A stretch of DNA of 64,000 nucleotides, taken from NCBI GenBank assembly GCA_010093605.1, contig MU004190.1, positions 868,001-932,000 of the forward strand. Reading direction: 5' to 3'. Position 1 is the stretch's first letter. Each line of letters starts with the position of its first letter. This DNA comes from Lophium mytilinum. Its lineage: Eukaryota. Under the pieces are notes generated by a model, which was not told where the DNA came from, made no database searches, and saw only the letters and a list, made by a program, of their open reading frames with translations. The position numbers and the translations under genes were made by a program. Positions 11,503 to 34,897 of the stretch are shown piece after piece.

Positions 11503-13677
11503 ATGTGTTTTGCATGAAAGAGTTAGTTGGATTGTTAGGGGCAGGTTGGCCGGTCACGATGGTGCGGGTGTTCATTTCTGGCCGTTTGTGAAGGCTGCAT
11601 TTATTGTCTATTTTGGAATTGGGCGGCGATGCGATCGAGCGGGTCTAGCGTTAAGCGGTCTGCGAGAGAGCGGAAGCGTTGTTTTTCCTGCGCGGGTGGG
11701 TGGTGGGCGATGTTAGGGTATATATGGCTTGTTTTTTCGAATGGAAAATCTGTTAAAATCAAATGCCCTACTTCTTCGACTTGGTGGTATTGCGACTTGT
11801 TGTTATTGTTAGTAGTCTAAAAGGGGTAGTGGTGTTGCGGATGGAGGTCAGGTTAACGTCGTGGAACCCTCCCGGCGGGTGCGCAAAACCACGTTGCGTT
11901 CCTTCCCTGTGGGACGTGGAATGCTGTGGTTCTGGTTCCATTGCCAAACCAAAAGCATCTTGCTATGTTCTCCTGAACCCCAGCAGAACCAAGGTTCATA
12001 ATCCCCCTAACCGTTCGCAACCACGAACACTGAACCACGGTTCACTTCTCCAAACCCGTGCTCCCTTGGTCCCTGAACTCCGCTCCCTTTCCACCCATCC
12101 TACCCACATCATCACTTCCGCTCACGGCACCCACCCAAGAATAGCCCTCGCCCACAGAGCCGAAGGATGAGGGATGCCGTGACATGTACAGGGGCATGGG
12201 GCTGGGGACGGGGGTGGATGTATAAATATATTACCTCGCACAGCCTCATCCCAACACGCCCGGGTACGCAAACGTCAGCGTTCGGGGGATACTGCTTTTG
12301 TCTTTTTCTCCTTTTTGGTTTTCTTTTCCATGTTACCGGATCCTAGCTGTGGTGGTTATGGGTGGGGGGGAGTGATGCGAGTCTGTTCTTCTCGTGCTGT
12401 GGATGGGTGTTCGATGAGGAATTAACACTCACGCACTGTAGCACAACCCAGCCGCGCACCACGACACAGGACACGTCACTTATATACGCTACGTTTGCAT
12501 CGTCGGTAACCGTTCGAGGGGGTTGGGGTAGCACGGCGGGGGAGGACTTGCCCGTTGGATGCTTCGATTCTATCTCGTACCACCATTCCAACGCCAGAAG
12601 TTGTCGAGAGACTGCACGCCGTACTGCACTAGCTACCGCGCTTTTCGTGCTTCTAGAAGTCTACGGATTCGGGATTGGGTTTGAGATGTCTGAGTAGGGT
12701 CCGATCTGGCTTCTATGCGCTGACGGAACAGCTATTCAGTCCAAACCTTAAAACCTCCGCTTCCAGCATGCGTATGCGCCCAAACAAGACAACCCCACTA
12801 ACAGCGCACGACTCTTCCACAAGACGTCTCTAGTTCGACTTCAATCTTAAGACGACGAAGCTCGTGTGCGCCTGCAACCATCCCCTCCTTCCCTCTTCCC
12901 CAGCACGAGAGACTAAACTCCAGGAAAACTACTACACTAAAGCAACCGATCTGTGCTACATCCCATCAACACCTCTAACACAACCTCCCTTCCTATTTCT
13001 CTCCTCCGTGAATCATCAATGCTTTGAACGCCTTACAAGCTTGAGAGCGTATGTAGAATCCCACGCGTCTCCCCAACGCAGGCAAACTCACTCGTTCCCC
13101 GCAAAATGAAAACATTCTGCAGTCATTGGCCCTCCTGCATTTTGGTGACGAAGCGCGGCGTAGTAGAGACATGCGTTGCGCGGCGTGTTGCGTAAGATTT
13201 AGGAAGGTCGGGAGGTTTTAAGATGAGGGCTGCGTCACCTCCATCAACTACCCTCGTGATATATCAATCCTGACACTAGTCCTCCGTACGGTGACTATTC
13301 TGCATCAATTCACATCAACTTGCAAAATCCGAGATGGAGTCGCTCAAACGCTTTTCATAGCTATCTCAGAGACAGCGCCGCTGGGCACCATCCCTCCCCT
13401 CCCCTTCCCCTATCCACTCTACCCCCCAGGTATCAAAATCACCCAGCCCGTAGGCCGAGCCCAAAACTAAGAAAAAATGCTTCCGCTTCTCGCTCGCACA
13501 TAAAGAGGAAAACAGACGAAGGTATCCTATCAAAAGCCGCCGCGCCACATGATGCATGAAATAAAGTCGTAAAAACCCCTGCCTAGACCAGCTGCCAGGC
13601 CCTCTAGTGCTTCCGATCCAACCCACGTCTCCTCTTCGATCATCCAGGAAGAAAAGATCGAAGTGGGACGGGTCGGA

Positions 13678-15954
13678 CTACCACTCCCGCGCATGCGTCT
13701 TGGAATAGTATCCGTCAACAACGTCATCGTAGCTTGGTTGTCGCTGTGGCTGTTGCTGCATCGGCCCCGCGGTCTGGCTCCTCGCTGGTTGTGTCCACCC
13801 AGGCTGCTGGAGTGGTGCTGTCGCGCTCCGCTGCGGTGGCACAGACCCCGGCCCGCGGTTTGGCAGCGGGTTCGACGCCTCGCGGCGCTGGATGGCGGCT
13901 TGCAGGACTGAAGGGAGAGCGGCGGCGTTAGGGTTGGAGCGAGGGGGAGGGGTGGCGCTGTACGGGACGTAGCCGTTTGCGCCGTTGTTCGGGGGTGTTG
14001 GGATCCCGGGGATCAGGCTTGGGAGCGGGCCTTGCTGTGCGGGTGTAGGCGCTCGGAAGGGGTCGTAGTCATCGGTGCCTTGGTACGGGTTTTGGGGTTG
14101 GCTGCGCTGTTGCTGGTGGCCCGGGCCAACGGGGGAGATGTCAACGGGGCTCATCTCGTAGGCAGGGCCTTGAGCTGGAGCGCGGCGGTCGAAGGGGGAG
14201 AAGCCAGGGTCGGCGAGGGGAGAAGGGCCTGGGCCACGGCGGCTTGCGGTGCTGAAGGCGGTGTTTGAGCGTGGTGGTTGGCCTGGGCGGGAGTCGGTGG
14301 CACTCATGGGAGAAGGTGAGTTGCGGCCATCCGAAGTGTAGTTGGTGTTGATGCGGGATGGAGGACCGAAGGAGTTCTCCGGTCGCATGGGCATGCCGTT
14401 GGAGGGTGCTGGAGAGCTTCGGCCTTGGGACGTGGGGGAGTATGGACGCTGAGGGCCTGGTGATCCCGTCATTCCCTTGTTCATCAGAGGCCTTGAGAAG
14501 TAGTCGGCATTCCGATCTAGTGGAGGCAGTGACGGAGCAGGCGAAGCTGATCGACCTCCGTATCCCATGTCGCTCGATTGGCTAAGAAGAGGTGCATTGG
14601 AGCCGTAGCTAACATTTGAATATGCGGATGATTGGGTCTCCGACCGTGACGGCGGCATAGGTCGCTTGACGTCCTCTGGGAAGGACGGCAAGGTAGGTGC
14701 TCTCGACGCTCCAGTCCTGCTAGTATTCATGGTATTGCTCCGAGAGGTGTACGGCGGTAGAGTAGTCGTTGTCTCCACCGAATATATGGAGTCTTTGTCG
14801 CCGTCGCTGCTGAGAACTGGCAGCGTAGGTACTCGCTGAGGCTGATCTGGTCGACCGCCTGTTTTCATCGACTTCTGCTCCTCTTTCCTACGCTTGGCAT
14901 CCTGCTTCTCCAATGCCTTCTTAACCTTCTTACCAACAATACGATCTAGACGAGCGTCAATTTTTCGTTTCAGGTATATCGACAGCCTCCCATCGCTACT
15001 CGGGATGTAATGCCACAAGAACATTACATAAAGTACGACGGCAACCAAGAGCGATAAAGCTGCTATCACCCAAACGACGAGCGTAAACAACATGGAGCCG
15101 TAGACAGCCACTTCTGTCCGGTTGTTTTGGGCAAGATGTGAGAGGTTGATGAAAAATTGTTGAAAGTTGGAATGGCCATCAGTAGATTTGTTTTGTCCAT
15201 TGGGGATCAGGCTGGCTTGCATGACCGCCCATAGAGTAAGGGCATTGATGACCGCTCGAGGTCCTTCGGCTACGATTATGACAAGAGCACCTGCAAGTCC
15301 ATGTTAGCAACGTGCTAAAGCACAAGATCTAGAGGAACAAACCTTTGAACTGGAAGTACACAAAAAGCGCAATATAGTCGGTGCCCTTTTTGCTCTTGGT
15401 CAATTCGGCAAAGACGAGGAAACGCCTCCATCCTTGGCCTCCTGGATTGACGCGCATGCTCTGGATGACAACAGCAAGAGGGTCGAGATAGCAATTGGCA
15501 ACACCGCCAGAACGGATGACCCTATACGCCCGAATCCAATCGAATGCTAGCAGCACGTATGAGGCGATGATGCTGCCAACAAAGATCCATTTGGCAATGT
15601 CGATGGGAATCGTCGGCTTGATCTCGCTAGACCATTTGTTGAAGGCGAGTAAACTGATTGCGGTAAAGCCATCGGAGACATAGGCGCCAGCCATGATGAA
15701 GGAAAGAAGCCATAGCCAGCCATAGGAGAGGGGAGTAAGGCATGAGGAACGGTGGAAGTCATCGAGGGTCTAGTCAAGTTAGCAGATGATCAATTGATAC
15801 ATGCAGGACGAATAGCATGAATGCTCAATTGCCGGAACTCTAGAGCCCTTGTCTTTCTAATAGCACTTATTTCAAGATAATAACGTACAATGTAATCCCA
15901 CTTCTGCTCCTCGGTCACGATGAGACCCTTCTCGCGGTCTCCACAGCAGCCCAT
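13678..15954 (-). CDS. KCH1: Kch1/Prm6-family low-affinity K+ transporter (vacuolar/pheromone-regulated membrane protein). Exons 15954-15889, 15769-15343, 15290-13678.
   Basis: MGCCGDREK..EEQKWDYI|TLDDF, GWRRFLVFAELTKSKKGTDYIALFVYFQFK|GALVIIVAEGPRAVINALTL and LFLWHYIP-like motifs, followed by a long P/S-rich cytoplasmic tail. Confidence 0.88.
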
Positions 15955-17849
15955 GATGAGAGTTGTTTGGTATTATTAGGTATATGAATCCGGTCCACGG
16001 CAATCGTCGGGGATTAGGCCAGCTCAGCTGGGCGTCGACTGGCGACGTCGTTGGTAAAGAGGGTGCGGTGCGCGTGGTCGTCAAGACATCCAGTCGCGAC
16101 GGATGGTAGATGGTGTGCAATGCTTTTGTGGTGACAGTCCAGCTGTTCACCGCCAGCAAAAGTGGTGATGGAAGACGGCGGTCAGGTGTTCTTGAGGTTC
16201 CAAGAGTAGAAGTTTGGCGCGCAAGGAGTGTGTGTCGGAGTTGGCAAGTCTAGAGAATGTGCATAATGGGGCGGATTCCTGGAGCGTGGCTGGTTTGATG
16301 CGCCCTATGCCCGCAGATGTTTCGAGGAGCCGTGTGTTGATGGCTGCTGAATGGAGCGGGTGTTTGCCAATGGGACAATAAGCGCGGTATGGTATTGTGT
16401 CGTCTGGTGAATAGCGGTGGGTGGGACGCAATGGAGCGGGTGGTGAAGGAGCGGCGGGTCCGGCTTCTCAGTGTCGGAACAGAAGCAGCGCAAAGCAAAC
16501 TGTAGGTCAAATGCGCAGCATCGAGACAGCGGGTGGGTTCACAGGCGTCTATGCGATTGACATAGCGGGCGCTGAGGGGTGTTGTGGCTGCGGTGGGTGT
16601 TGGGAGCAAAAGGAGAGGCCGTGGTAGTACAGGGTCCAGCGGAACACGCTCGGATGCCTCCGCGTTTGAGATCAACCCACAGCCAGCCCGCTCGCCAATC
16701 AGCCCGCAGCCTCCCCTTTGCTGAGAGGCCATCCGGCTGCCAAAGTGGGCGTGTTCCTGCGCAAGGCCTGCTTCAAGAGGCCCGGGGTCCCCGCCCTGGC
16801 CAAACCGCTGACAGGCTGGCCGAGAGATTGGGGACAAATCTGAGACCTGCCGTGTCCACCACTCTTTTCGCGACAGATATGAGGAGCACAAGCGCCTACC
16901 TACATCTCACTACCCGTCGACTATTTCCATACTTCAGAACAGACGCCAGAACGCAAGGCGGCGAGGACTTGTACGCCGCCTCCGCTACTTGTGGCGTGCC
17001 TCGGGAATCTGGACATCACCATTACGCCCCAACGTTTGAGGTTTAGGATGCGCAAATCCCGCCTCAGCTCAGCCCACTGTGGATCGAGAAGGTGAGGCGC
17101 ATGTATCAGCCGCTAAAGCTATTTCGATGCCATCTTTGCACGTCATCTGTCACGCGATGGTAGCTTTCGTAGATCTCAGGGTAAAAATCTCATAGAAACT
17201 AAATTTACTTGTTCAGATTCTCCTTGCCCACTAAACCTCATTTATGTTCATTTTCCCCGTTGGAAAGCATCTCAATCTTAACCTGGATTTGAATCCCGCT
17301 CTGACTTCGCCTGCATAAAATCATTTTTTCTTTGTTTTGCTCCTCCCTCTAATTCACCATCTTATCTCTATTAGCTTCCATTCTAACTTCTTCGTTCTTT
17401 TCATTTTCTAGCACCATTGTCGAGGTCGCTCTGACAGTCGCAAAGAGATGGTAAAATGCTAGAAGGCAGTCACTGGCTCTTAGCTTCCGGAAAACAGGCA
17501 TAGGTGATAAGCAGACATTTCAAAAAGAGGTTAAGACATGTAGAACTTAAGGCTCATTCGACACCTTTGGAAACGACATAAGTTCTCCAATGCGCACTAG
17601 GCAATGGGGGGCCTCCTGACAGTGCTAGGCTACAAGCAGTCACGACGAAGGCCGTGTCTGGTTCAAAGGTCTGCAGGCAAACATGAGTTTTCTCCAATGA
17701 GTAATAAATCAAGTGAGGCTAACGCATGTGTAGGCTGTGTGGCCTTTTCATAGACTTGGATAAAGGGTTATTGTAAAAAGTATCAGAACCTCTATACGGC
17801 CCTTCCTCAATGCCCTATCTTGACCTTCAAAAACGTGTAATGATGGTAC

Positions 17850-17982
17850 AGCATGTCCATGCGCCGTTCGATGTCCTCCGCTAGCCACCAGTTTAGCATC
17901 TTTGTACGACACGGTGATATGGTCGGCTTCGACCCTCTTACCACATTTCTTCACAACTATCAACTTGGACATCGCCGTTACT
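17850..17982 (-). pseudogene. Partial second copy of the HGY-family core domain
   Basis: Encodes TAMSKLIVVKKCGKRVEADHITVSYKDAKLVASGGHRTAHGH, a direct repeat of about 18195-18330. No matching N-terminal exon seen. Confidence 0.65.
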
Positions 17983-18042
17983 GATGACAGTTCATATACC
18001 CAAGAAACCAATCGTAGCATGACAAGGACTCGCCGTCGCTCT

Positions 18043-19035
18043 TCAGAACGGAGGGTTACTGAGGTCGATATCCATAGTGGTCGAGTCCATGATCCTAGGC
18101 CATCGGTCCTTATGCTCACGACGATGCCGCGCGTCATCGTCATGCGGCCAGCCATCCGATGTCGCATCAATGACCTCGAACGACCTCGGGCCTTCCACAT
18201 ACCCATGAGCCGTGATGTGTTTGCGGCGAGCCACCAGTTCAGCGTTTTTGTAAGACACGGTAATGTGGTCCGCCTCGACCGTCTCACCATGTTTGTTCAC
18301 GACTAGCAACTTGGACATCGGGGTTGCTCTTGACTGGTGAATTGGCCCGCTGGGATGCGTTACCTTGTGTTTTGATGCAAGATTAGGTCGGGGACAAACA
18401 TACCGAATCATCATGGTTCGCACACTCTTGTCCAGGAATTGCAGCGTGTAGAAAGCGGCTTTTGTCAAGCCAGCCTTTTGTCTTGGAAGGGGCGTCCCCT
18501 CGTACCAAAAGAAGACGAACTGTTGGATGTTTGGGGCGCGGGGAGGGGCGCGCAAAGGGACTACTGCAGCCAGAGGAGGTGCGCGCAAAGGGACGACTGC
18601 GGCCTGCGGTCGTGCTGGACCGTATAACACAACTTGTCCATGCTGGTCGTAGCCGGATACGGCCTCGTGCTGCTGTTGGGCTGGCTCTTCTTCTTGCCCA
18701 TACTCCTCATTTCCGACAGGTTGACGGGAAAACGTGGGAATCTGCCTCGACAACATGGTCGGCTGCCCATACCCCGCCTGCGGGTACTGTATTTGGTTGT
18801 ATTGGCTGGACATGGCTGGTTGATAGCCAGGCTCGAACGGCTCGAATGTCGGTCGTCGTTGATCCTGGCTCGAAGGACCAAACGAAACATGTTGGCCATT
18901 TGTGGAGTATTCACGCATCAGGGATGTTATTGTGATAGGCATAGGAGGACGCCCATCTTGTTGAAGATGTAGTCCATGTTGTGCGGTCCAGTGCAACGGC
19001 TGCTGAAGCAAGTCGTTCGGGTTCAACCGTGACAT
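18043..19035 (-). CDS. Uncharacterised HGY-family protein 1, about 312 aa, with a Q/P-rich N-terminus. Exons 19035-18404 and 18349-18043.
   Basis: Long ORF. An in-frame 54-nt intron GTATGT(18403)..CAG(18350) gives VRTMMIR^GPIH..DHITVSYK..HITAHGY..WPHDDD..WP. Probable upstream 5' intron at 19122-19071. Confidence 0.75.
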   Translation of the reverse strand: MSRLNPNDLLQQPLHWTAQHGLHLQQDGRPPMPITITSLMREYSTNGQHVSFGPSSQDQRRPTFEPFEPGYQPAMSSQYNQIQYPQAGYGQPTMLSRQIPTFSRQPVGNEEYGQEEEPAQQQHEAVSGYDQHGQVVLYGPARPQAAVVPLRAPPLAAVVPLRAPPRAPNIQQFVFFWYEGTPLPRQKAGLTKAAFYTLQFLDKSVRTMMIRYVCPRPNLASKHKVTHPSGPIHQSRATPMSKLLVVNKHGETVEADHITVSYKNAELVARRKHITAHGYVEGPRSFEVIDATSDGWPHDDDARHRREHKDRWPRIMDSTTMDIDLSNPPF

Positions 19036-20069
19036 TCTGGAAGTTGCACCATCGGATATCTGTTTCAGGGCTGGCAATTGTCAGAACTAGGTGAGCATAT
19101 AATATGTTGATGGTTGACTGACCTAGATTGACGATACACAGGAAGTCCACAGATCAAGTGCGCTCGCTAACTAAGAAAGCTCGTTCTCCAATTCCTGGGT
19201 TCATTCCAGCAATGTGGAGAGCTAGAGTGGATAACTGAAACTTCGATATGTTGTCGAGTATAGAAGAATGCTAAGCGCTGCAGATCATCCAATACGTTAC
19301 CGCGACGGAAACGTGAGAGCTGGGTAGTTGTTCTCCCGTCGAGTGATGTTGTCGTTCTTCTGTAAGGTAGGCGACAGCTTGATTAAGAGAGTTGTAGAGT
19401 CGTGGACCAAATGGTGAACGGTACTTAAGTAATGGGGGCAACGGCAGCCGCTGGCCATAGGATCCAGCTATGGCTGGCATCAGAATCTCGTCGAATATTG
19501 TGGCTGTTGACCGCGAGCGAAAATGCTTGGCTGCCATCTCTGTGGTGAATAAAGACGCTGCAAATTCCGCTCAAATTACACCATAAGTAAACGCCTCATT
19601 CTTCCAGCAATCATTGGCTCGGGGAGTAGATATAGTCAACGGTATATGGAGAGGTACTTGATATGAAGACGCCCATCCCAAGCCAGACTAGCACCCCATA
19701 TATAGGTAACATCCAAAGTTTGTCGGATGATTGCCCCCATTTGCTCGTCAGGTCACTTCGATTACACCAAACTTTTCTCAACATCCATCATGTACTTCTG
19801 AACTTTCTCGGGGGTTCAGAAGAGTTCTCTAATTTCCAGAGCCCCCCAGTGAATTTTGAGGAGACGAAGTACTTGTTCAAGTCGTCAGGCCAAATTCGCA
19901 CTGCCGCGAACGAGAAGCCAAAAAAGCACCTCGCGGGAACAACAACTTTACCACCACCTCACCATCCCCTCTGGCGCAGCTCAGATCTCACACCCTGAAG
20001 CTCTCATCAACCTAAGTCCGCATCAATCACGAAAATCGGTTCTTCAAGGTTCCAGAGCAGCCGCCCAGC

Positions 20070-21606
20070 ATGAGTGCTCTGCAGAAATTACACTTCGTGT
20101 ATAAGCAAGCAATGGAGGAGGGCGCAGAGTGGCTCGAAGGCTACCAGTCCGGAGGGTTCCATCCTACCCTCCTCGGCGAGTACTATCACGAGGGTCGCTA
20201 TAAGGTTATCCATAAGCTCGGCCATGGCAGCTACTCTACCGTTTGGCTCGCTTGCGATACCGTTGATAGGAAGAATGTGGCCTTGAAGATCCTAAGCGCT
20301 GACAGGCCCTCCCGCAACCGCGAAACCGAGATCATGCGCCTCCTCACATCCGAGAAAACGAAGGATCAGGGTAAGAAGCATCCGGGTAGCGCTTACGTTT
20401 TGTCGATCCTGGATGAGTTCTTCATTGAGGGTCCGAATGGGAAGCATCTTTGCGTAGTCACGCCCCTCGCAGGAGGCAGTGTATCCTTCTCAAAAGAATG
20501 CGCTCGGGAAAGCCCAGGGAAGTTCCCTCTCTCTGCATCGAGATCAATCGTAGCTCAGATCGCTCTTGGTCTTGAGTATATTCACTCCTGCGGCATTGTC
20601 CATGGTGGTAAGTGTTAAACTATTCATTACCTGGTGAGCAGTCAAACCAACCCCTTGACTCCATCGGAAAGCCGTTAGCTAACATTCAATAGATCTGCAT
20701 TGCAACAACATCTTCCTAGAGATTCCGGGCCTAGATACTGTCTCCGAGACCGAGATTTACTCGTACATCGGCGAACCTCGAAAGTTCCCCATCGAACGCG
20801 TAGACGACCTTCTCCTCGGACCCGAGACCCCAGCCTACTATGTGTTACCAGCCATGATTGAACTGATCAGCGATGAAACAGTCCACAACCCCAAGATTGT
20901 CATTGGTGACTTTGGCGAAGCTTACTTCTCCACAGACGCCCGAGACCGCGGTTACCTAAACACTCCTATCAAACTCCGTCCCCCGGAAGCTTTCTTTAAC
21001 GAATACCTCGGGGCCAAAGTTGACGTGTGGACGCTGGCATGCACAGCCTTTGAAATACTTGGCACGCATGGGCTTTTTACTGAGGAGGAAGACTTGTGCA
21101 TTGCTGAGATGATAAACCACTTAGGTCCGCTTCCAGAGAGGTGGTGGGAGACGTGGGAGGCTAAGGATGAGTTTTTCTATCCGAGCGGCGCTCCTAGGGA
21201 TATCCCTCAGTTCAAGTCATTGGCTGAGCACATGCTGGCGATGGGGCGAGGCCAAACTCCCGAGGCTTCCGAGTTCAGCAAGGATGAATTCATCGCTCTG
21301 GAAATCCTCTTCAAGAAGATGCTCACGTACGAGTCCGTTGATAGAATCACTTCCAGCGAAGTGGTGGCTTCGGACTGGATGCAGAACTGGGCGGTTGGGG
21401 ACTTGGCTGAACCAGCTCCTCGGCAAGCGTTGCAAGCACTCCTCGAGGGTTGCCGAGAGTTTGGCCCGATTTTTAAAGAGCAGGACAAGAAGTTCCTAGC
21501 CAAAGTGGCCAAGATGAAAGCTCAAAAAGCTAGGGCAAAATGGACAGAGCGCCAAGAGAATAAAGCGGAGGTGAGGGAGCCTCCAGACGAAGCTTCCTCT
21601 CATTGA
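20070..21606 (+). CDS. SRPK-like (CMGC) Ser/Thr protein kinase 1. Exons 20070-20607 and 20693-21606.
   Basis: YQSGGFHP, HKLGHGSYSTVWLA, VALKI, GPNGKHLC, HG^DLHCNNI, DFGEA, RPPE and DVWTLAC motifs. Confidence 0.92.
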
Positions 21607-22289
21607 TATTGAGCACCAGAGCTGGGCCTACGGAGACTGGAACTGGGATATCTTCACAGAAAGGTGGCGAAAAGGGAATAAGGCCCATGCTGGAACTCTG
21701 TGGTTTCAGCGATGAGGTAAGTATTCAGGGCATTCGCAGGTATGTATGCCATTAATCATTTTTGAATTTCTTTGCGATTCCGTACTTTGGTAGTAAGCAA
21801 TTCCGCATGGTAGCAAAAAGCAAGATCTCAGTATCACCGTGAGGTCCCCAAATCTTCAGATAATCTGTCAGTGTCAGTCTCATTCCGCCCCCCACTATCC
21901 ATTTTCTCTAGGTCCTTCGTATCCTGGCATTCCTTCGATCAATTTATCTTCTGGTCATAGTTTTGAGGACCTCCGAGGCTCCTGGGTTTCTACGATTGCC
22001 GCAGATGTGCCAGAAACCGATGTCTGATACAAAGTCTTCAGCAAAGACATCCATTAACGAGGAGGACATTTTCGTCGGCGACACCCGGGAGGTCGTAAAG
22101 AGGTGCTACGCGTACTATTCCCCAAGCTAAAAGAAATAGTTTAGCGGAATTCAGTGATAAGCCACAGACGCCTTCGAGGACTTAGGGATGTATATCATAG
22201 GGTACAATTATGGTTCTTGATTGTAGGCTCCTGAAACAACTTCTTCAATTGGAGGGTCGCATCTTATCGAATCTTCTAGCAGCTGGTTT

Positions 22290-22719
22290 ATGGCCTATAG
22301 GACTTCAATTTACAGCGCATTGAAGCAAGTTGATCGGAGGACCCCTTCCAGTCGCAAGAAGGTGAGAGTCCTCGCTGCATTAATCGCTAATTTGCGATCT
22401 ATAGGGTTACGTTGTGATCAGGTTCCAGAAATTGCTCGCAAGATCTCGGGCGCTGAATCCCCCTCTACCGGATTTGAAATGGGTAGGCAGGTCCAGGAAT
22501 ATCGCTGGAATCGCTCTAACAGTCGGAAAAAGACAGCAAAGGGCTAGGTTGGAAGATGAGATTCACGAATTACAGGAAATCACAGACAAATCCGAAGTCA
22601 GAATCTTACGGAGACAATATCGAAGGCCGCAGCACGTAGGCTTTCCAACTCCAAGCGGTCGGTGGAGGGAGTTCCGGCATTCCACGACTATGGACATCCA
22701 CGACAATGGCAGTGTCTAG
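22290..22719 (+). CDS. Possible small spliced gene or gene remnant (intron 22362-22404)
   Basis: GTGAGA..GCTAAT..TAG joins ORF 22290 in frame to ORF 22414 (RKK|GYVVIRFQKLL). Further intron-like signals upstream; no recognisable domain. Confidence 0.3.
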
Positions 22720-23062
22720 TTCACAAACATGCAGATGAAGGCAATGGTGTTTCAGTGATTGATGTAAGCCAAAGAGGCTCGTGCAATCAAAGCCACGTTG
22801 TAGGTAGGGTTGGGGTGCGTTGGGGAAGGGGTAGTGGGGCGTAGCTGATATTGTGCAGTAAGCAAAGGGGACTTTGAACCTGTCGTCCCTCGCCACCAAA
22901 GCCCACGCTCCGCGATCTAGATCCAGCACCTATTGGCCGCTCTGCCGTCGTCTAAGTCGTGAATAGTCGTGTCAGTATATCCGCCGTAGCTGCAGCCCTA
23001 CTCTCCTCTACCATGTGTGTATTATGTAGGAGGCAATAGCTCCTCAAAGGCCTTCGACACCC

Positions 23063-23784
23063 TCAATGGCTTTGTCCGTGTCTAGACGCGGCTCCCCTGA
23101 TCTGGCCTCCACGGCTTGCGGCACCAACGATCGAGTACCCGGGGTCGTCGTCGTCGTCTTCTTCGGGGACCCAAACCCTCTGATCTTCGAATTCAGTGAT
23201 GTTGAAGGTCCTGTCTTCGGTGTGATGGATCCTAGTCCCAGGTGCTGGCCACTCGCCGTTCTCGTCATCGTTGTGAGGGCCCCAAATTCGACGCTGCCCT
23301 ACATAAGGAGAATTCTGACCATTCGTATAACCATCCATACTCATGTGGGTATTGTCCAGGATATCGCGTCCCTCCTTGAGAGAAATCGTAATGAGCCGGC
23401 ATTCGTCATCAGACTCCCCGTGAGCTCTAGTGGCTCGGTGGGTGATACTCCTTAATGCACCGTTAGAAGACTTAAGAACGTAACGCCGACTTATCATCTC
23501 TATACAGTGGCAGGCCATAAGCTTTTACACACCGGTTTACCAGTGATTCGAGGACAAGGCACTTCAGACGACGACAGGCCAGCGTATATAGTTACATGAC
23601 TAAGCAAGAGCCTGACATACCTAATGCAGATCTCTCGAACGTCAGGAAACTGTTCTCTAGCCGTATTGAAAGCTGCCTCGGCGTTGATGCGGTTCTGATC
23701 AGCATCGCGCGGGGGTTGTTCGACCCATAGTAAGCGAACAGTGACTTGTCGTTGCACTGCTCGTTTCCTCATGGCCCAGGGCAT
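23063..23784 (-). CDS. Uncharacterised HGY-family protein 2, 183 aa, with two conserved His replaced. Exons 23784-23621 and 23450-23063.
   Basis: Intron GTATGT..CTAAC..AAG joins DVREICIR^SITH..RLITISLKE..MDGY..WGPHNDD..WP; acidic tail. Confidence 0.8.
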
Positions 23785-24634
23785 GATGCTGTCACGTTGA
23801 TTAGTTTTGATGATAGTCGAGCGATTTCTCCGCGCTGGTGCACGAACTTGTTCTTGGATTGGAATAGAGATCTGCTACCTGGAGGCTCGCACAAGTAAGC
23901 TCGAGCTGCTTGTAAGGTTTGCAGTTGCAATCTCTTGGCTTGACTTGAAGAAGTGTGAGTGAGGTTCAGGACCGACCTGATCTCCTAGCGTTACGAAAGG
24001 CCAACCGGCACACCGCTGGCCGCGAGCAGATCTTACCCTGCGTCAGTCTTCCAAGAACAGCAATTAGCCGCTACTCGTTAGGGCCTCATACTAGTGAGTG
24101 AATGTGTCCCAATATCAGCGTCACTTCATTAACGACGCTAGATCATTGACTACAACATAGGCTAAGGGTTTTATTCCACGACCATGGATACTCACGACAA
24201 TAACAGTGTCTAGTTATAAGCATATAAATGAAAGTTATGTTACTTCTGCTATTGATCTAGTATAAAGAGCCTGACTTAGAGTCATACTCAAGTCTCTGGA
24301 TATCGTAAAGGGGAGTAGGGGTATTATGAATCAGTGTAGTGGGTATAGGGGACCTTCAACCTGCCGCCTTTCGCTGCCAAGTTTCATACGCTGTAATGCA
24401 AATCCATAGCCTGTTGGCCTCTCTGCCGTCGTCCAGGTCGCAAGTCGTTGTCGTAAGTCGTCGTAAGTCATCGTCGTGAGACCATATCCGCCATCAACCC
24501 TGTTAACCTCTTTGCCGTCGTCCAGGTTAAGAATCGCCTCGTCGTATCCGCATAGCTTTCACCTATCCTCGTTGGCCAAAGTTGGGTCTTTGAAGCTGCA
24601 ATAGCTTCGCAAAGACCCTCAGATGTCGTGTTTG

Positions 24635-25310
24635 TCAATAGTTCTGGCCGTACCTAGAGGAGTGTCCACCACGGTAAAACTCGTCCTCTTCGTCCGGCTC
24701 GTATGTAGCAACCCATATCGTTTCATTGATGGTGAACGTGTAGTCCTCAATCACATTACAATCCGAATCTCGTGGCCACCCGGTGCTGTCGTGGTGGGGG
24801 CCCCAATGTTGATCCCAATGCACCTCGGAAGACATCTGATCTCTCGTATAGCCGTGCATGTCCTTGTAGGTATTCCCGCTGATGTCCTGTGCCTCCTTCA
24901 CACGAATAGTGACATGCCAGCCGTTCGGGTCCGTTTGACCGTAGTATGACATGGTGTTGTGGTGGATGTTCCTAAATGCGCACAATTAGACGTGTGTTAT
25001 TACTTCTGTACAACCTCCTTCACCACTGCTTGGGGTCTCCCCACAGGCTATCAACAGATCAGACTGCATCTTGACTGACGGACCACTGAGCGGCCAGGCT
25101 ACCCCTTACAGTGGTGGCGATTGAACACATTCAACATCTGACTTACCTAATGACGATGGTTCGAACATCAGGATAGTGCCTCATGGCCGTGTTGTAAGCG
25201 GCTGCGTAGACGATCTCATTACGCCGCCGATCGCGTGTGGGATTGCACCACCACAAGAAACGAATAGTGCGGGACCGCTGCACTTGTTGCTGCCTATACA
25301 CGGTAGGCAT
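24635..25310 (-). CDS. Uncharacterised HGY-family protein 3, 166 aa. Exons 25310-25147 and 24971-24635.
   Basis: Exon 1 (absent from the ORF track) MPTVYRQQQVQRSRTIRFLWWCNPTRDRRRNEIVYAAAYNTAMRHYPDVRTIVIR, intron GTAAGT..CTAAT..TAG, then NIHH..DPNGWHVTIRVKE..MHGY..WGPHHD..WP. Confidence 0.82.
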
Positions 25311-27026
25311 GGCGTGAGATGCCTTTAGATAGGTTAGATTAGGAGTTCTGCGCTGTAATCAGAACACCTTGTTTGAAACATGTGTACTCTTGGATATGTC
25401 GGAGAACCACAAGCAGCGGCAAGACCGTGTACATCGATCAATGACGAGGCACAGTACTAACCTGTATGTGTTATAGAGCAGAAGCTTACTATCTGGAAGC
25501 TCGCCCAGGTAAGCTTGAGTTGTGGTTTGTTCGAAGATGTCTAGAGATAGCTTCAGGATCGACCTGATATACTAGACACATCAAAGACACGAGCAAATAT
25601 TGCCCGGTGTCAGTCCCACAAGAACCGCAATCATGCTAGATTGTGAATACAGTACAATAATAGCACCGCTCAGCTGACGACGCCGCAGTACCGGCGACCT
25701 ACATGAGCCTCCCGAATAGCCGCTTCTTTCCCGCCGCCAATGCCCTCTCTAGCAAGGAAGATGGCCTAGGTTTCCCGTAATGAAGGAAACCTCTCTATGG
25801 TGGCTCATAGAGGTCACACTCTGACCAAGCTTATCACCGGGCTCGTGGTATCCACTCCTAAATACCCGGGCTGGGTACAGCATAGTTCAGATACTGGATG
25901 TCTCTTTCTATGAAATTTCATGCACACGTAGCATGGTACCTAGTAACGTCGATGTCTAGTGCAAAGAGTTCTCCTACCTTCTTAGCGAGGAAGAATACGA
26001 AAAGTTTCATCGGCAGTAGTGTAGAACTCAATTAAGAAAACAAAAATAACATATATATCAAGTATAAGTCCAGGGCGAGGATGGTTCACTTATTAGAGTA
26101 GCAACACCACCCGTCCAGGAATAAATCGTACATAGGTAGTTTCAGATTCCGGAATACGGGAGATAAGATAGTTCACGTTAGAGAGGGCCAGATCATGCGG
26201 AGTTTGACGCAATATTTTCCTTGTGACCTTGGTTTGCCCTTCCAATGATGCCCTGTGACCTTACGAATATACATCCATCGCCCGAGGAACTCTTCATGAC
26301 CTCAAGTGTCGTATTGCTGTATGACCCACCAACAAGTCCACATTTCAAAGTTGCTGAATTGAATGGGCGCGCAGGGCATAGAGAAGGTGGCACCCTTGTT
26401 CTAAATACTTGTGTTTGCCACTGCTTGGGCTACTTCAATGCATTTTCGGAAATCCAAACAAGATCGGAGCCCACAACCTTGGGCAACATGAAAACTCGTT
26501 GGAAGCTCTCCAAGCAGTGGCAGGTAGGTGTGCATATGGTCTCCTGATGCTGCTACTTGAATTACCGGTGTAGCTACTTGGGCACTGGTGTACACAGACT
26601 ACTTGATTTCTCCGCACAAGATGCATTTATGGTTCTTCTGGCTTCGCTGGATTAAGCTCTTCAATACGGCTTTGAAGCGCTGATGGCTAATGAGTTCTAC
26701 ATACTTAAATTCGAATACATCTCTCCCTGCATTGTTTCCATGGTTCCAAATGTCGATATACGACACCAGTTATTTGTTCTCTAAGGCAGAGGCCTTCTAG
26801 ATGTTTGATCGTCAATGTTCCCACTTTTTCACGTCCAGCGTGAAGGGGTGAGGTCGGTTTGGAGTGGCTCGATACGGCTAGCGCAGCAAGCACGACTAGC
26901 GCGAAATGATCACTAGCCAATCACCAACATTTACGTTGCCGAGAGCTTCCTCATTCATAAACTCTCATTGCCCTGCAACTTACCTGTCGCAACAACACCA
27001 TACCCTCACCGAATTCAACGTCAACC

Positions 27027-28749
27027 ATGAGTGAGCAAACACCGGCCAAGAGCAAGCAAGTGAGTCCTCAAGGTCAAGAAATGCCTGACCAACCGCCCGA
27101 CGCGAGCAAAGTGGGGAAACCACGCATTATAGCAATCAACGGCATACCCTTCCACAGCAAATCCAGGAATACCACAGCTAGCTCGCAAGTTACCAAGCGC
27201 TGCCGGCCCGAGCCCGTTTATGTAGATCTTCACGACGGTGTTGAGAATGTCGAGCGCTATGTTGTCGGTGGGTATCATCCTACTCACATCGGCGACCTTT
27301 ATCACAACGAGCGCTACAAGATCGTTCACAAGCTTGGCCACGGCACCTTTTCCACCGTCTGGCTCGCTCGCGACATGGTTGAGGAGAAAAACGTGGCCTT
27401 GAAAATATCATGCGCTGATGTGCCTGCGGTGAGCCACGAAAGCCAGACTCTAGGATTGCTTAAAGCGGGACAATCCGACCATCCAGGAAGATGTTATGTC
27501 ACCTCGCTCCTGGACAAGTTTGGTATTGAGGGTCCGAATGGGAAACATCATTGTCTTGTGATGCCTGTTTCTGCCTGCAGCGCATCTAAGTCCAAAGATA
27601 AGCGTGACGGGGGCCATTTCATATTCCCGATGCCAGTTGCAAGGTCGATTGCTGCTCAGGTCCTCCTGGGTCTTGACTACATCCACTCTTGCGGCGTAAT
27701 ACATGGAGGTGAGCGCGCAGCGATTTTTTCACTTGATGATACTCCACTTCGTTTGTTACCACATAATCAAGGGCTAATGGTTGGTAGACTTACATACAGG
27801 TAATATCCTTATCGAACTTCCAGGCCTAGACCAACTTCCCGAGGACGAGTTGTACGCGCACCTCGGCGAACCCAAAAAGCAACCTCTCCGGCGTAGAGAC
27901 GGTCTTCCACTCGGATCGAATGCCCCGGCCTACTCGGTTTCATCCGCTATGTTAGTGCTCGGCTGCGGAACAGAGGTCAAGGACCCAAAAGTCCTCATCT
28001 CAGACTTCGGAGAATCTTTCCTTATCACCGATGAAGACTGCAAGGAGTTGCACACGCCTATGATTCTACGTCCCCCGGAGTCCTTCTTCGGAGAACGCAT
28101 CGGGCCAAAGGCGGATATCTGGACAATGGGATGCACCCTCTTTGAGATCCTGGGATGCGGTACACTCTTCGAAAACTGGTTTCCGGATATGAACCAGACA
28201 GTAACGGAGATGATCAGCACCCTAGGTCCAATACCAACGAGGTGGTGGGACAAGTGGTCTGCTGAAGGCAAGAGCATGTCTTTCAACCAGGACGGGACCT
28301 GGAAAGAAGGAGCTTTCGTGATGTCGTTGGCGGACCGAATGCGGACCATGGCTTCGAAGGACCCTAGCCGAGAGGCTGTGCCACCCGATTGTAGCGAAGA
28401 GGAGTTTGCAAGCCTCGAAACTTTGTTCAAGATAATGTTGACATACGAGCCTGCGGAGAGGGCCACAGCAAGCGACGTGGTAGCTTCAGAGTGGGTGCAG
28501 AAATGGGCGATTCCTGCAATCACGGAGCCTTCTTCCCCAGTCAGCCTCGACTTTCTAGCGGAGAGGCGTCGCGAATGGGTGGCCCTAGTTGCGGAACAAG
28601 ATAAACGGAGGGCAGAAACGCAAGAAAAGCAGGCGAAGAAGGACGCGCTGCGGGCCGAGGATGAGAAGTCGGGACTGTGCAAAGAAAAAGAGGTCCCAGA
28701 TTCTGAGCTTACCGAAAATGAACACTTCAAGCGGAATCAGGAAGCTTAG
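27027..28749 (+). CDS. SRPK-like (CMGC) Ser/Thr protein kinase 2. Exons 27027-27708 and 27788-28749.
   Basis: YVVGGYHP, HKLGHGTFSTVWLA, VALKI, HG^DLHTGNI, DFGES, RPPE and DIWTMGC motifs; same intron position as kinase 1. Confidence 0.93.
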
Positions 28750-29183: not shown

Positions 29184-31098
29184 TCACCATTCAGGCGGAT
29201 CCAAGCAGCTCATTGACTTCGCCACACGAACCAACTCATCAGCCTCCTTCTTCGAAAGTGCAAACTTCATGGTGGCGTCATACACCATAACGCTCTCCCC
29301 ACTCACCTTCGCCACCTCAGATCGCACCATACCCTGATCGAATCCCTCGGCGTTTTTTCCGTCATCTACCCCATCCTCTACATCCCCAAAAAACATCAGA
29401 TCCTCTCCCTGCGACACCCACGTAGGGAAATGTCCTTCCCCAGGCATCTCAACACTGCAATCCTGATCCGACAGCAGGTCAATCTGATTCTGCGGTTTCT
29501 GATCACCCGCATCCCCATCCATTCCCGTCGGTTCCTCATAGCCGTCCGGTATCACCCACTCCACAACCTTCCAGTCCTTCGTCAGTAACGCGTGGCCCTT
29601 CATACAGGTAAGCTGCCTGCATGCCCCTCCCATTTCGCACTGCTGCGTCCGCGCGCGATACCGCACAGCATCCAGCAGTTTTGGATCTAGCACTTCTGAT
29701 GGACTGTGGTCCAGGAGACAGGTAGGCGCATTGCAGGCGCCGCGGAAATGGAAGTCGGGACAAGGGTTGCCTTGGGCGCTGTTATTGGCGTTGAGGGCGT
29801 CGAGGGAGGCCTTTTCAGAGTGCTGCAGGAGAGTGTCGAGGCGGTGGGCGGAGGCGTTGAGGGGGATGAGGTGAGAGTTCTCGGTATGAGGGAGCGGGAG
29901 AGAGTGATTGGAGGAAGTAAGGGTTCGCTGGTCGAGGGGGTTCGAGGAGGGTTCGGGGGTGTTGGGACGGTCGGGCGTGATGCCGGAGTCTGGTGGGAGG
30001 GGAGATTGGGTTGGAGGAGGATGGAACATTTTGCAATCTTTCCCCCATTTGCAGCTTCCCTATATACTTGAATGTCAGCATGAGGTTCTCGTGGTGGTGG
30101 CTGCTTCGAGCTGCTCTCGGCGTGACTCTATGTGTCCTCAAGTACTCAGATTGATTTTATGTCCGAGGCATTGGAAGTTGAAACTTGCCATCTTATAGAA
30201 CCAACACTCCTGAATGGGCACCGGGAACACTTTCTCGAATGCGAAACTAGCTGACGCACGCAGAGGGTGTCCATTTTTGACGTATATAGGTGCCACAATC
30301 GTAACGCGCTTCGTTGCCTTTATAGCCGATCGAAGGAGCTCGACGTATGGCTGGCCGCCAAGAAAGAAGATATGTTTGCATCGACTGTCTTTCAAGGACT
30401 GCTCGAAGATTTCTGATATAATGATGAATAAGGTGCCGCTCGTTTGGGGTGGTGGCTGTGTCTTACGTTTGACCTGTCGTATCTTCCTGCCAGTCGACCC
30501 AACATCCACGTAGTGGAACTGAGTATCGAATGCATTGAACGACAGAATGAATCGGTCCAGCGAGGGGCTTAGTCCAGGGCCGAGTAGTTCCCGTAGCTTG
30601 GCTACGTTCGCGTACACACGCACCCGGATGTCGTATTCCCCAGCGGGGAGCTTACGCGCTCTCTCTTGGACGGCAGCGTGTAGATACTCGGCGGCCAAAT
30701 TACCTCCAGAGTCTCCGGCTTGGATGAGGTTCTCATCAAACTAGAGCTGGTTCAGCATCTTCGTGTGGCGATGTTGGCAAGATTAGGAACTCACGCTCTT
30801 CCCGTGGTCATCTACTAGTACCAGCACGAATGGCTTCTTGACGCTCTTCAGCGGAGCCTTTGCGGCGGCCGAGGGCTTTTCGGGAGCCATCGTGTCTTTT
30901 GGCGGCAGCTTTACAATAATCTTCGGGGGTTCGGTCTCGGTAGTCTCGCACTTGCGAATGGGCTTAGATGGGTAGGATTAGTGGAAATGACTAGGAAATG
31001 AAATGACTTACCTGGAGGCTCCCCGTCTCCTGGGTCTTCGTGGCTTGCTCATCTCCTGACGAAGAGATAGCCACCGGACGCTTGCCTCTATTCGACAT
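29184..31098 (-). CDS. DUF7923-like (NYN/PIN-like) plus CCCH zinc-finger protein. Exons 31098-31012, 30962-30795, 30740-30467, 30412-30189, 30059-29184.
   Basis: PFVLVLVDDHG, FDENLIQAGDSGGNLAA, VRVYANV and FHYVDVG motifs. A GC-AG intron (30188-30060) completes CWFYKM|GSCKWGKDCKMFH. Further fingers CPDFHFRGACNAPTCLLDH and CEMGGACRQLTCMKGH. Confidence 0.8.
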
Positions 31099-33808: not shown

Positions 33809-34897
33809 CTAGAGGTCATCCTCTTCCATCTCGTCTTCTCCAACAGGTTCCTGACTCTCTTTGAACACCCTAGTGAAAAACCGCGTTAGGATGGAAATGT
33901 CCTTAGATAGGATTTAGAACTAAATTTCAACAGGGGGTTTGCGCAAACTTACAAGTGGCGCTCGTAGTATTGAAGCATCTGCAGAAAAAATGTCAGCCAA
34001 GCTCAATGGAATGAATCATAGAATCATACCTTTTGAGGGCACTTCTTGTAGAGAAGTGACAAAGTATGTTGTGTCTTCCTCTCATCGTTCCACATAATGT
34101 ATCCCATCAACTTGGGCCCTCCAGTTTTGGCGTCAGTGGTCTGCTCCACTGACTCAACGCTGATAACAAGTTCTTCCCACAGCCCTTGCGGTGGTTCCCA
34201 TACTTGCTCCGACTTGATCTTGCTCTTCAAAGCCGGTGTGCTGTCGTCCCCGTTCTTTCCTCCCTTCGATTTCCTACGTCCTTGCTTGGGGGTTTTGCTC
34301 GCGACGGGGGTCCCAGACTGTTTCCGTTTCCTGCCGGAGGCAGATGTTGGTTCTCCTAGCTTCGGCCTACCGCCAATCTTCTTGTGATATGCTGCCAAGA
34401 GATCCGTTGCGCCCGTTCTATAAGATTGTCAGCGCAAGAATGGAGCATTTGGCGCACAACTCACAGGTTGTCTTCTGGTTCCCAAGTTCGGTCCGACTTC
34501 TTCTCATAGCCTAACCACTTCACCTCGTATTTGAGGACCTTGGTATGTTAGTGTCTGCCGTAACTAAGTGACTGGGCGTGCTCACTTCGTCATCGAACGC
34601 GTGGTTAAGAATAGCCTCGACTATGTATCTGAAAATGCATTAGTCAAAGACACGCGCGTGGCGAGGGCGCGAATGCATACTCCTCCTCTCCGACTTCATC
34701 AGAGCCATTCTCGTCGCCATCTTCCTCACCGTTCTCGTTGCCGTTCTGAACGTCAGATTCGTCCTTGTCGAATGGGATCTCGTCCTCGTTTCCGGAGACA
34801 GAAGCTTCTTCGTCGCTCAGGGCAGCTATTGCGCGACGCATTAGTGAGATATTCGCAATGTTGAGGAGGACGGAGGAGGGGCTGGCTCACGCGGCAT
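33809..34897 (-). CDS. HP1: Heterochromatin protein 1 (chromo plus chromoshadow domains). Seven exons: 34897-34891, 34825-34681, 34628-34586, 34538-34465, 34417-34030, 33978-33953, 33869-33809.
   Basis: Chromodomain EYIVEAILNH..KYEVKWLGYEKKSDRTWEPEDNL; basic hinge; chromoshadow WEELVISVESVE..YKKCPQKMLQYYERHLVF. Confidence 0.92.

Follow-up and report, generated by a model that had tools for sequence, protein, structure and literature searches.

A 64,000-nt stretch of the Lophium mytilinum genome (GenBank assembly GCA_010093605.1, contig MU004190.1, positions 868,001 to 932,000 of the forward strand; hereafter the window) carries three small genes, HGY-1, HGY-2 and HGY-3, two of which lie head-to-head with genes for SRPK-like kinases, K1 and K2. 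The same type of kinase accompanies HGY genes in every locus found outside the window. Two HGY-kinase pairs (HGY-1/K1 and HGY-3/K2) are present together with decaying extra HGY copies, namely HGY-2 and a fragment of HGY-1. A probability of roughly 0.5 is assigned to the reading that the pairs are copies of a mobile two-gene module in which HGY would be a His-dependent RNase toxin and the kinase its antidote. The source genome comprises 43.4 Mb in 49 contigs, and the window contains spliceosomal introns and genes of fungal Pfam families.

A recurrent HGY-kinase gene pair

Outside loci were collected by scanning metagenomes with 16 close members of the family, and nine of 109 candidate stretches were confirmed. 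These represent seven distinct loci (L029/L030 and L033/L034 are repeats), all fetched by the HGY query alone. A kinase related to K1 and K2 was present in all nine (seven distinct), in addition to the two pairs of the window, in which the genes are separated by 1.3 kb (HGY-1/K1) and 1.7 kb (HGY-3/K2). Six of the outside loci are arranged head-to-head, with 634-1303 bases from the HGY start to the kinase domain. In L031, the kinase is encoded on the same strand as HGY at a distance of about 2.4 kb, with a DUF7587 gene in between. At the density of such kinases in the Lophium genome (~12 loci), a lower bound of ~0.002 would be expected by chance per 6.4 kb. The two-gene linkage that characterizes a toxin-antidote module is found across genomes, and the pairing with an SRPK-like kinase (nine of nine loci and two pairs in the window), which the initial annotation of this DNA had overlooked, is the strongest functional clue for HGY.

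Linkage could also exist without function if a single ancestral neighbor pair had traveled with mobile or accessory DNA and HGY were an ordinary small enzyme. This would fit the different layout and more distant kinase of L031 as well as the fact that all seven outside loci belong to one HGY subfamily and could stem from a single block. It is nevertheless considered highly improbable, as all other neighbors have been exchanged: among 35 long open reading frames (ORFs) scanned around the outside loci, those for NmrA, DDE transposase, NACHT, ankyrin, Arf, acetyltransferase and long terminal repeat (LTR) gag proteins were not shared. Moreover, the layout is kept between HGY copies of about 30% identity (~25-35% between window and outside copies) and between linked kinases of 31-46% identity with saturated synonymous divergence (dS).

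Gene structure of the HGY genes

Each HGY gene contains a GT..AG intron, and in each case long open frames are obtained on both sides only if the intron is in phase 2, splitting the codon of an Arg with His at the fourth residue after it. This architecture, which the initial annotation had proposed for all three genes at the positions listed in Table 1, is thus confirmed within the window. The NCBI model of HGY-3 (P0002) uses the same intron, the spliced HGY-1 junction is present in a relative from Mytilinidion (P0005), and the same phase-2 intron occurs in four of the seven distinct outside loci (L027, L028, L029 and L035), while the other three show a break at this place and no clean gene model. 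CTRAY branch-like sites are found at a distance from the acceptor of 17 nt in HGY-2, 19 nt in HGY-3 and 38 nt in HGY-1. A second, 3' intron in the NCBI model of HGY-3 seems unnecessary, because the ends of HGY-2 and HGY-3 align without splicing.

The spliced products align, as had been claimed: HGY-2/HGY-3 score 284, HGY-1/HGY-3 82 and HGY-1/HGY-2 77, whereas 2000 shuffles per pair reached at most 67, 58 and 56, respectively. The paralogy of HGY-2 and HGY-3 is clear, and HGY-1 is a distant but real relative. HGY-2 is a tandem duplicate of HGY-3, marked by a duplicated 3' flank, and the two differ by a nonsynonymous divergence (dN) of 0.55 at a dS of 1.16. Another statement requires revision. 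The family is not visible only after splicing, as the stop-free, in-frame intron leaves HGY-1 a single 345-codon ORF with the intron in or out, and the NCBI model P0004 keeps these 54 nt unspliced. A fourth, partial copy, a tandem duplicate of HGY-1 exon 2, accompanies the three described. No HGY copy was detected outside this cluster in the same genome among the best candidates scored with seven queries. The NCBI protein models of HGY-3 and HGY-1 are both annotated as "hypothetical." In L032 (3300-4770), three tandem HGY copies were observed within 1.5 kb beside one kinase, an arrangement that echoes the decaying extra copies of the window.

The HGY-1 start at position 18813 is inferred, further in-frame ATGs being available up to 19035; P0005 begins at the matching Met and shares 70% identity with HGY-1 over 207 aligned residues. 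A low-complexity N-terminal extension rich in Gln, Pro and Tyr (18556-18813, minus strand) is found in HGY-1 and P0005, whereas most family members have none, and could represent a regulatory or aggregation-prone segment.

The HGY family

HGY is an unnamed ascomycete family without a Pfam entry. Out of 1.84 billion cluster representatives, a profile built from the window pieces retrieved 44 (E <= 0.001), from which one 4044-aa repeat protein was removed as spurious; a second search returned 23 proteins, 18 of them new. The family, which had been treated as local, is thus represented in many ascomycetes, with named members from lichen fungi, Aspergillus, Penicillium, Paecilomyces, Scedosporium, Tolypocladium, Daldinia, Stromatinia, Microthyrium and one Lipomyces. 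Most are single domains of 130-155 aa (typically ~135 aa), and among 56 proteins the median pI is 8.6, Cys is rare (median one) and N-termini are mostly not hydrophobic.

The near-invariant signature of the family consists of R, H, D, HxT, K, H, HGY and WP. In the 56 proteins, counted without gaps and without HGY-2 and from rows picked by the profile, which inflates the counts, H59 (50/50), H74 (55/55), T76 (55/55), H94 (56/56), Y96 (55/55) and W120 (55/55) are strictly conserved, followed by K80 (55/56), H90 (54/56), D69 (53/55) and R55 (48/51). HGY-3 retains R55, H59, D69, H74, T76, K80, H94, Y96 and W120 and has Tyr at position H90. HGY-2 carries Leu and Asp at the His positions of HxT and HGY (RLITI, MDGY) and, judging from these replacements, is probably catalytically dead. 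The initial annotation had assigned a His triad to all three genes, which does not hold: HGY-2 has lost two family His and HGY-3 one, and the His of the PH[DHN]D motif shared by the three window copies is not a family feature, being Lys in 41 of 53 proteins. Conserved Ser and Thr residues flank the catalytic candidates (S56 in 80%, T61 and T62 in 92% and T76 in 100% of members) and could plausibly accept phosphate. Between intact outside HGY copies, dN amounts to 0.36-0.42 at saturated dS, and selection on HGY genes is purifying. Two members, P0038 with internal repeats of the HIT..HGY half and P0030 with intron-like sequence left in at the Arg junction, suggest that the family is frequently mis-annotated.

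The statement that no named domain is recognizable was upheld. No Pfam match near the cut-off was obtained for the window exons, 28 family members or P0004 and P0005; NCBIfam, PADLOC and PHROGs gave only scattered single weak matches for 56 members, and PDB sequence searches with HGY proteins were blank. An atlas search yielded no usable match for P0002; for the family member P0012, its matches were bacterial clusters without a name that scored 0.90-0.91, short of the recognition mark, and were not used. A search for prokaryotic relatives gave one 19-residue match taken as chance; a bacterial phylum represented by 401 genomes yielded no relative, nor did viral contigs. A description of the family or of the kinase pair was not found in the literature, as judged from titles and abstract openings, with subscription journals mostly outside coverage.

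Predicted fold and possible relation to BECR-like RNases

AlphaFold2 modeling of P0012 with the family alignment gave a predicted local distance difference test (pLDDT) of 95.8 and a predicted template modeling score (pTM) of 0.88; the values for HGY-3 were 84.3 and 0.72. The predicted order is strand, helix, strand, hairpin, strand, short helix and two strands, forming an antiparallel sheet (in P0012: E5-12, H20-37, E41-46, hairpin 47-65, strand to 73, E81-89). No solved or viral structure stood out in fold searches with the HGY models. Of the fold analysis that the initial annotation envisaged, the confident model was obtained and a clear PDB match was not, and the gathering of the conserved residues in one pocket is suggested only by strand alternation.

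In the available text of its description, the BECR-like layout is defined as a helix, beta3, an extended loop, beta4 and beta5; a strand may precede the helix, and beta1/beta2 are reduced or absent. Active-site residues, with a recurrent His, are placed at the C-terminal end of beta3 and at beta4's N-terminal end (10.64898/2026.08.28.747851). According to the same text, ordinary searches with members do not return canonical BECR structures. HGY agrees with this layout by element order, the strand numbering being our own. In P0012, R47 (48/51) and H51 (50/50) close the first of the two strands, and D63 (53/55), H66 and T68 (55/55) open the next, which is where the definition places active-site residues. 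Profile comparison with hhalign covered two BECR-like families, each a thin template, and gave a score of 10.8 against five PF15657-type sequences (29 of 60 shuffles as high) and of 11.0 against one Ntox47 sequence (16 of 60 shuffles as high), the link threshold of that paper being E <= 0.01. Its main text contains "fungal" once and none of "fungi," "kinase" or "ascomyc," and its supplements could list the HGY family. No structural or profile match of HGY to any RNase, including barnase, EndoU, colicin D/E5 or RelE as canonical BECR proteins, was obtained. Accepting these limits, the HGY model looks like a BECR-like RNase, with homology and membership unproven. The earlier guess of a small alpha+beta enzyme using His and Arg therefore stands in its fold class and conserved residues, while its RNase part stays putative.

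Motif resemblances to EndoU, 2H, HEPN and phosphothreonine lyase proteins were considered and found no support. No match to 2H phosphoesterases, HEPN or phosphothreonine lyases appeared in Pfam, NCBIfam, PADLOC, PHROGs, PDB sequences or the fold lists, and the beta-rich HGY model is unlike the all-alpha HEPN fold.

HGY might instead be a non-nuclease partner of the kinase that handles phosphate or metal, for example a phosphatase, a phospho-Ser/Thr reader or lyase, or a Zn site formed by H59, H74, H94 and D69, within a co-regulated signaling or RNA-processing pair. Metal or phosphate could be bound just as well by four near-invariant His together with Asp, Arg and Lys, the searches returned no nuclease fold, and SRPKs act on splicing factors according to the available part of PMC3591445. 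Such a role is rated doubtful, as the patchy, cross-genus, transposon-flanked occurrence and frequent decay of HGY would be unusual for housekeeping signaling, and no phosphatase, lyase or 2H family was matched in Pfam, NCBIfam or PDB sequence searches.

The SRPK-like kinases

K1 and K2 share 45% identity and carry the motif KLG[WFYH]GxxxSTVWL, which defines SRPKL kinases in the accessible text of PMC3445971. VALK, HGDLHxxN and DFG are present in both, and the catalytic Lys, Asp and Asn are thus intact. A profile of the outside linked kinases has SRPK1 as its best PDB match (E 3e-44), and the linked kinases contain no Pfam sensor domain. All HGY-linked kinases have the catalytic loop HGD[LI]HxxN, with His where Lys is usual, in contrast to HTDLKPEN in the Sky1-type gene of this genome. 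A phase-1 intron in the Asp codon was observed in K1, K2 and six of seven outside kinases and is lost in L033.

In a tree of 16 rows, with three further loci of the genome left out, the nine linked kinases and a third kinase, K3, are placed apart from the other paralogues of the genome with a support of 82/95, which is short of strong. K3 (L009:4400-6000; contig ~933.4-935.0 kb) lies just beyond the window, is the sister of K1 and K2 (support 99/98) and has no HGY neighbor. Its motifs have drifted to HGDLSSNN and KLGHSSYSLAW, and it is possibly an orphaned antidote in decay.

Uneven decay and possible mobility

Every HGY locus seen has a kinase, whereas 10 of the 12 SRPK-like loci of this genome show no HGY within flanks of 4-10 kb. 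An intact HGY model exists in three of the seven distinct outside loci, and no intact, motif-complete HGY in the other four: HGY is frameshifted in L029, L031 and L033, and of the copies in L032 one contains a stop, one is an exon-1 remnant and one (L032b) is free of frameshifts and was counted as motif-incomplete because Asn replaces the HxT His. The kinase, three times longer than HGY, is open in all seven, a count in which L029 needs a GC donor and L028 reaches the contig end. The window repeats this pattern, with extra HGY copies that have lost His residues or are truncated next to intact K1 and K2. Decay of HGY first matches the prediction for a toxin-antidote pair, because loss of the toxin is free and the antidote cannot go first.

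Ire1 and RNase L provide the logic for a different relationship, in which the kinase would turn the HGY nuclease on within an antiviral or nonself cell-death sensor-effector system, HGY being inert until phosphorylated. The linkage and divergent layout speak for this relationship too; NACHT and ankyrin genes lie near two outside loci, the window copies have very long branches, and K3 decays without a partner. Activation by the kinase is unlikely all the same: losses should then scale roughly with gene length, yet HGY is not intact in four of seven loci and the kinase is broken in none, and the kinases have no Pfam sensor domain.

Near-identical HGY proteins occur in different genera and orders. 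Aspergillus and Penicillium share clusters at 90% identity, and identities reach 94% for one pair from these genera and 91% between Tolypocladium and Diplogelasinospora, while two other cross-genus pairs are only 79-83% identical. The Lipomyces protein groups with Penicillium proteins (support 100/97). These similarities may reflect horizontal transfer of HGY.

A proposed toxin-antidote module

In the toxin-antidote reading, HGY would be an intracellular, metal-independent RNase of BECR-like layout that uses His, Arg and Lys for acid-base catalysis and poisons a cell or spore that carries it without the kinase. The SRPK-like kinase, transcribed divergently from it, would serve as cognate antidote, in the simplest case by phosphorylating a conserved Ser or Thr adjacent to the active site (the R-S position, the HxTT position or the invariant Thr of HxT). 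Such a pair could survive and be propagated as a cassette that is selfish or kills nonself, e.g., if spores are killed or if fusion with a non-carrier ends in death. Some observations temper this proposal: the outside loci all come from one subfamily, as noted above; assembly errors and relatedness among loci weaken the decay count; and S56, one of the plausible phospho-acceptors, is not kept in HGY-1 and HGY-3. A complex prediction for HGY-3 and K2 (as two pieces, without alignments and with an uncertain partner fold) scored 0.04 and is evidence in neither direction. The broader claim that HGY and its kinase form a widespread, horizontally moving ascomycete toxin-antidote system, combining a eukaryotic BECR-like RNase with an antidote recruited from SR-protein splicing kinases, is more tentative and held at somewhat below an even chance.

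The expansion of SRPK-like kinases in filamentous fungi is described as not understood in the available parts of PMC3591445 and PMC6001611. An HGY partner with invariant His would supply a candidate substrate and a purpose for one branch of these kinases and, if the proposal is correct, would account for part of the expansion. Fungal selfish or nonself-killing elements would then gain a new class, their short list a two-gene, kinase-neutralized killer, and the BECR-like RNases possibly a eukaryotic branch. Should the toxin-antidote proposal fail, structural and functional work still has a clean target in a pan-ascomycete family that is unnamed and has a confident model but no clearly related solved structure.

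Transcripts and neighboring features

A sequencing run available as contigs, whose type is guessed to be RNA, contributed nine joints, among them the K2 intron. No joint was seen at the three HGY introns, where the depth of 0-2 counts neither for nor against them. The spliced RNA contig opposite HGY-1 exon 2 and its duplicate (Table 1) contains no ATG-started ORF of more than 95 codons on its own strand and is possibly an antisense RNA that silences HGY-1. In an RNA contig at K1 (20634-20692, plus strand), the donor is shifted downstream by 26 bases relative to the in-frame one, and this would bring in a stop codon; the short side of this joint comprises 20 letters only.

Between HGY-3 and K2, a degenerate coding-like stretch was noted (26500-26800, plus strand); a 38-aa piece of it has no Pfam match, and a motif likeness to a fragment of a PDR-type ATP-binding cassette (ABC) transporter is unconfirmed.

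Table 1. Features of the window, with positions counted from its first nucleotide.
Feature	Position	Strand	Remarks
Fungal potassium channel	13429-16339	-	Ordinary neighbor (Pfam)
Spliced RNA contig	16752-18320	+	Depth 15; intron 17669-17733; extends 3' to ~18320 as inferred from the length of the record
Partial tandem duplicate of HGY-1 exon 2	17850-17987	-	78% nucleotide identity; no exon 1; ends after AHG
HGY-1 exon 2	18043-18349	-	All four family His, T, K, Y and WP kept; Glu replaces family Asp
HGY-1 intron	18350-18403	-	54 nt, GT..AG, phase 2 in Arg codon, in frame, stop-free
HGY-1 exon 1	18404-18813	-	Q/P/Y-rich N-terminal extension, first strand and helix
K1 SRPK-like kinase	20070-21606	+	483 aa; intron 20608-20692; head-to-head with HGY-1; KLGHGSYSTVWL, HGDLHCNN, DFG
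3' flank of HGY-2	22679-22959		69-73% alike to HGY-3 3' flank at 24173-24440
HGY-2	23063-23784	-	183 aa; intron 23451-23620, 170 nt, GT..AG, phase 2
HGY-3	24635-25310	-	166 aa; intron 24972-25146, 175 nt, GT..AG, phase 2
K2 SRPK-like kinase	27027-28749	+	547 aa; intron 27709-27787 (seen as RNA joint); head-to-head with HGY-3; HGDLHTGN, DFG
CCCH zinc finger/DUF7923 gene	29187-30740	-	Ordinary neighbor (Pfam)
Chromo-shadow protein	34027-34428	-	Ordinary neighbor (Pfam)
CCT chaperonin subunit	35877-37683	+	Ordinary neighbor (Pfam)

Comparison with known systems

Among SRPKL kinases, K1 and K2 are recognized by their motif, and the available portions of PMC3445971, PMC3591445 and PMC6001611 mention no partner gene for this group. 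The putative toxin is most similar in layout to the BECR-like RNases Ntox47, PF15657/BECR-like-Tox1 and SRLase1, which, as far as the accessible text describes them, also show an extra N-terminal strand, a helix, a strand, an extended loop and two strands (10.64898/2026.08.28.747851; 10.64898/2026.09.18.752725). The Arg and His of HGY end the first of these strands and its Asp, His and Thr start the next, so that these residues flank the loop. By eye, DxPH...K...H of HGY resembles the Ntox47 member P0093, and its R-x-D and H-x-T echo R70-x-D72 and H97-x-N99 in the description available for SRLase1. Unlike these RNases, HGY proteins are eukaryotic, encoded by intron-bearing genes, stand-alone, paired with a kinase and free of a delivery domain or immunity protein, and they possess an additional C-terminal strand and the WP motif.

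With respect to the proposed mechanism, the bacterial TakA-TglT system consists of two adjacent genes, and the available text reports that TakA phosphorylates TglT and is proposed to neutralize the toxin in this way (PMC7205606). Its kinase is atypical and its toxin a nucleotidyltransferase; there is no homology to HGY and its kinase, and the mechanism is comparable by analogy only. The Spok spore killers, in the available description, are likewise ascomycete elements in which a predicted nuclease kills and a kinase protects, with patchy spread and cross-species transfer (PMC6660238). Spok is, however, one protein composed of a PD-(D/E)XK nuclease, a Cys cluster and an ELK-like kinase, whereas HGY and its kinase are encoded by two genes on opposite strands. 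HGY differs further in its His-type alpha+beta domain with a median of one Cys and in its SRPK-derived kinase, and spore killing is only proposed for HGY and its kinase.

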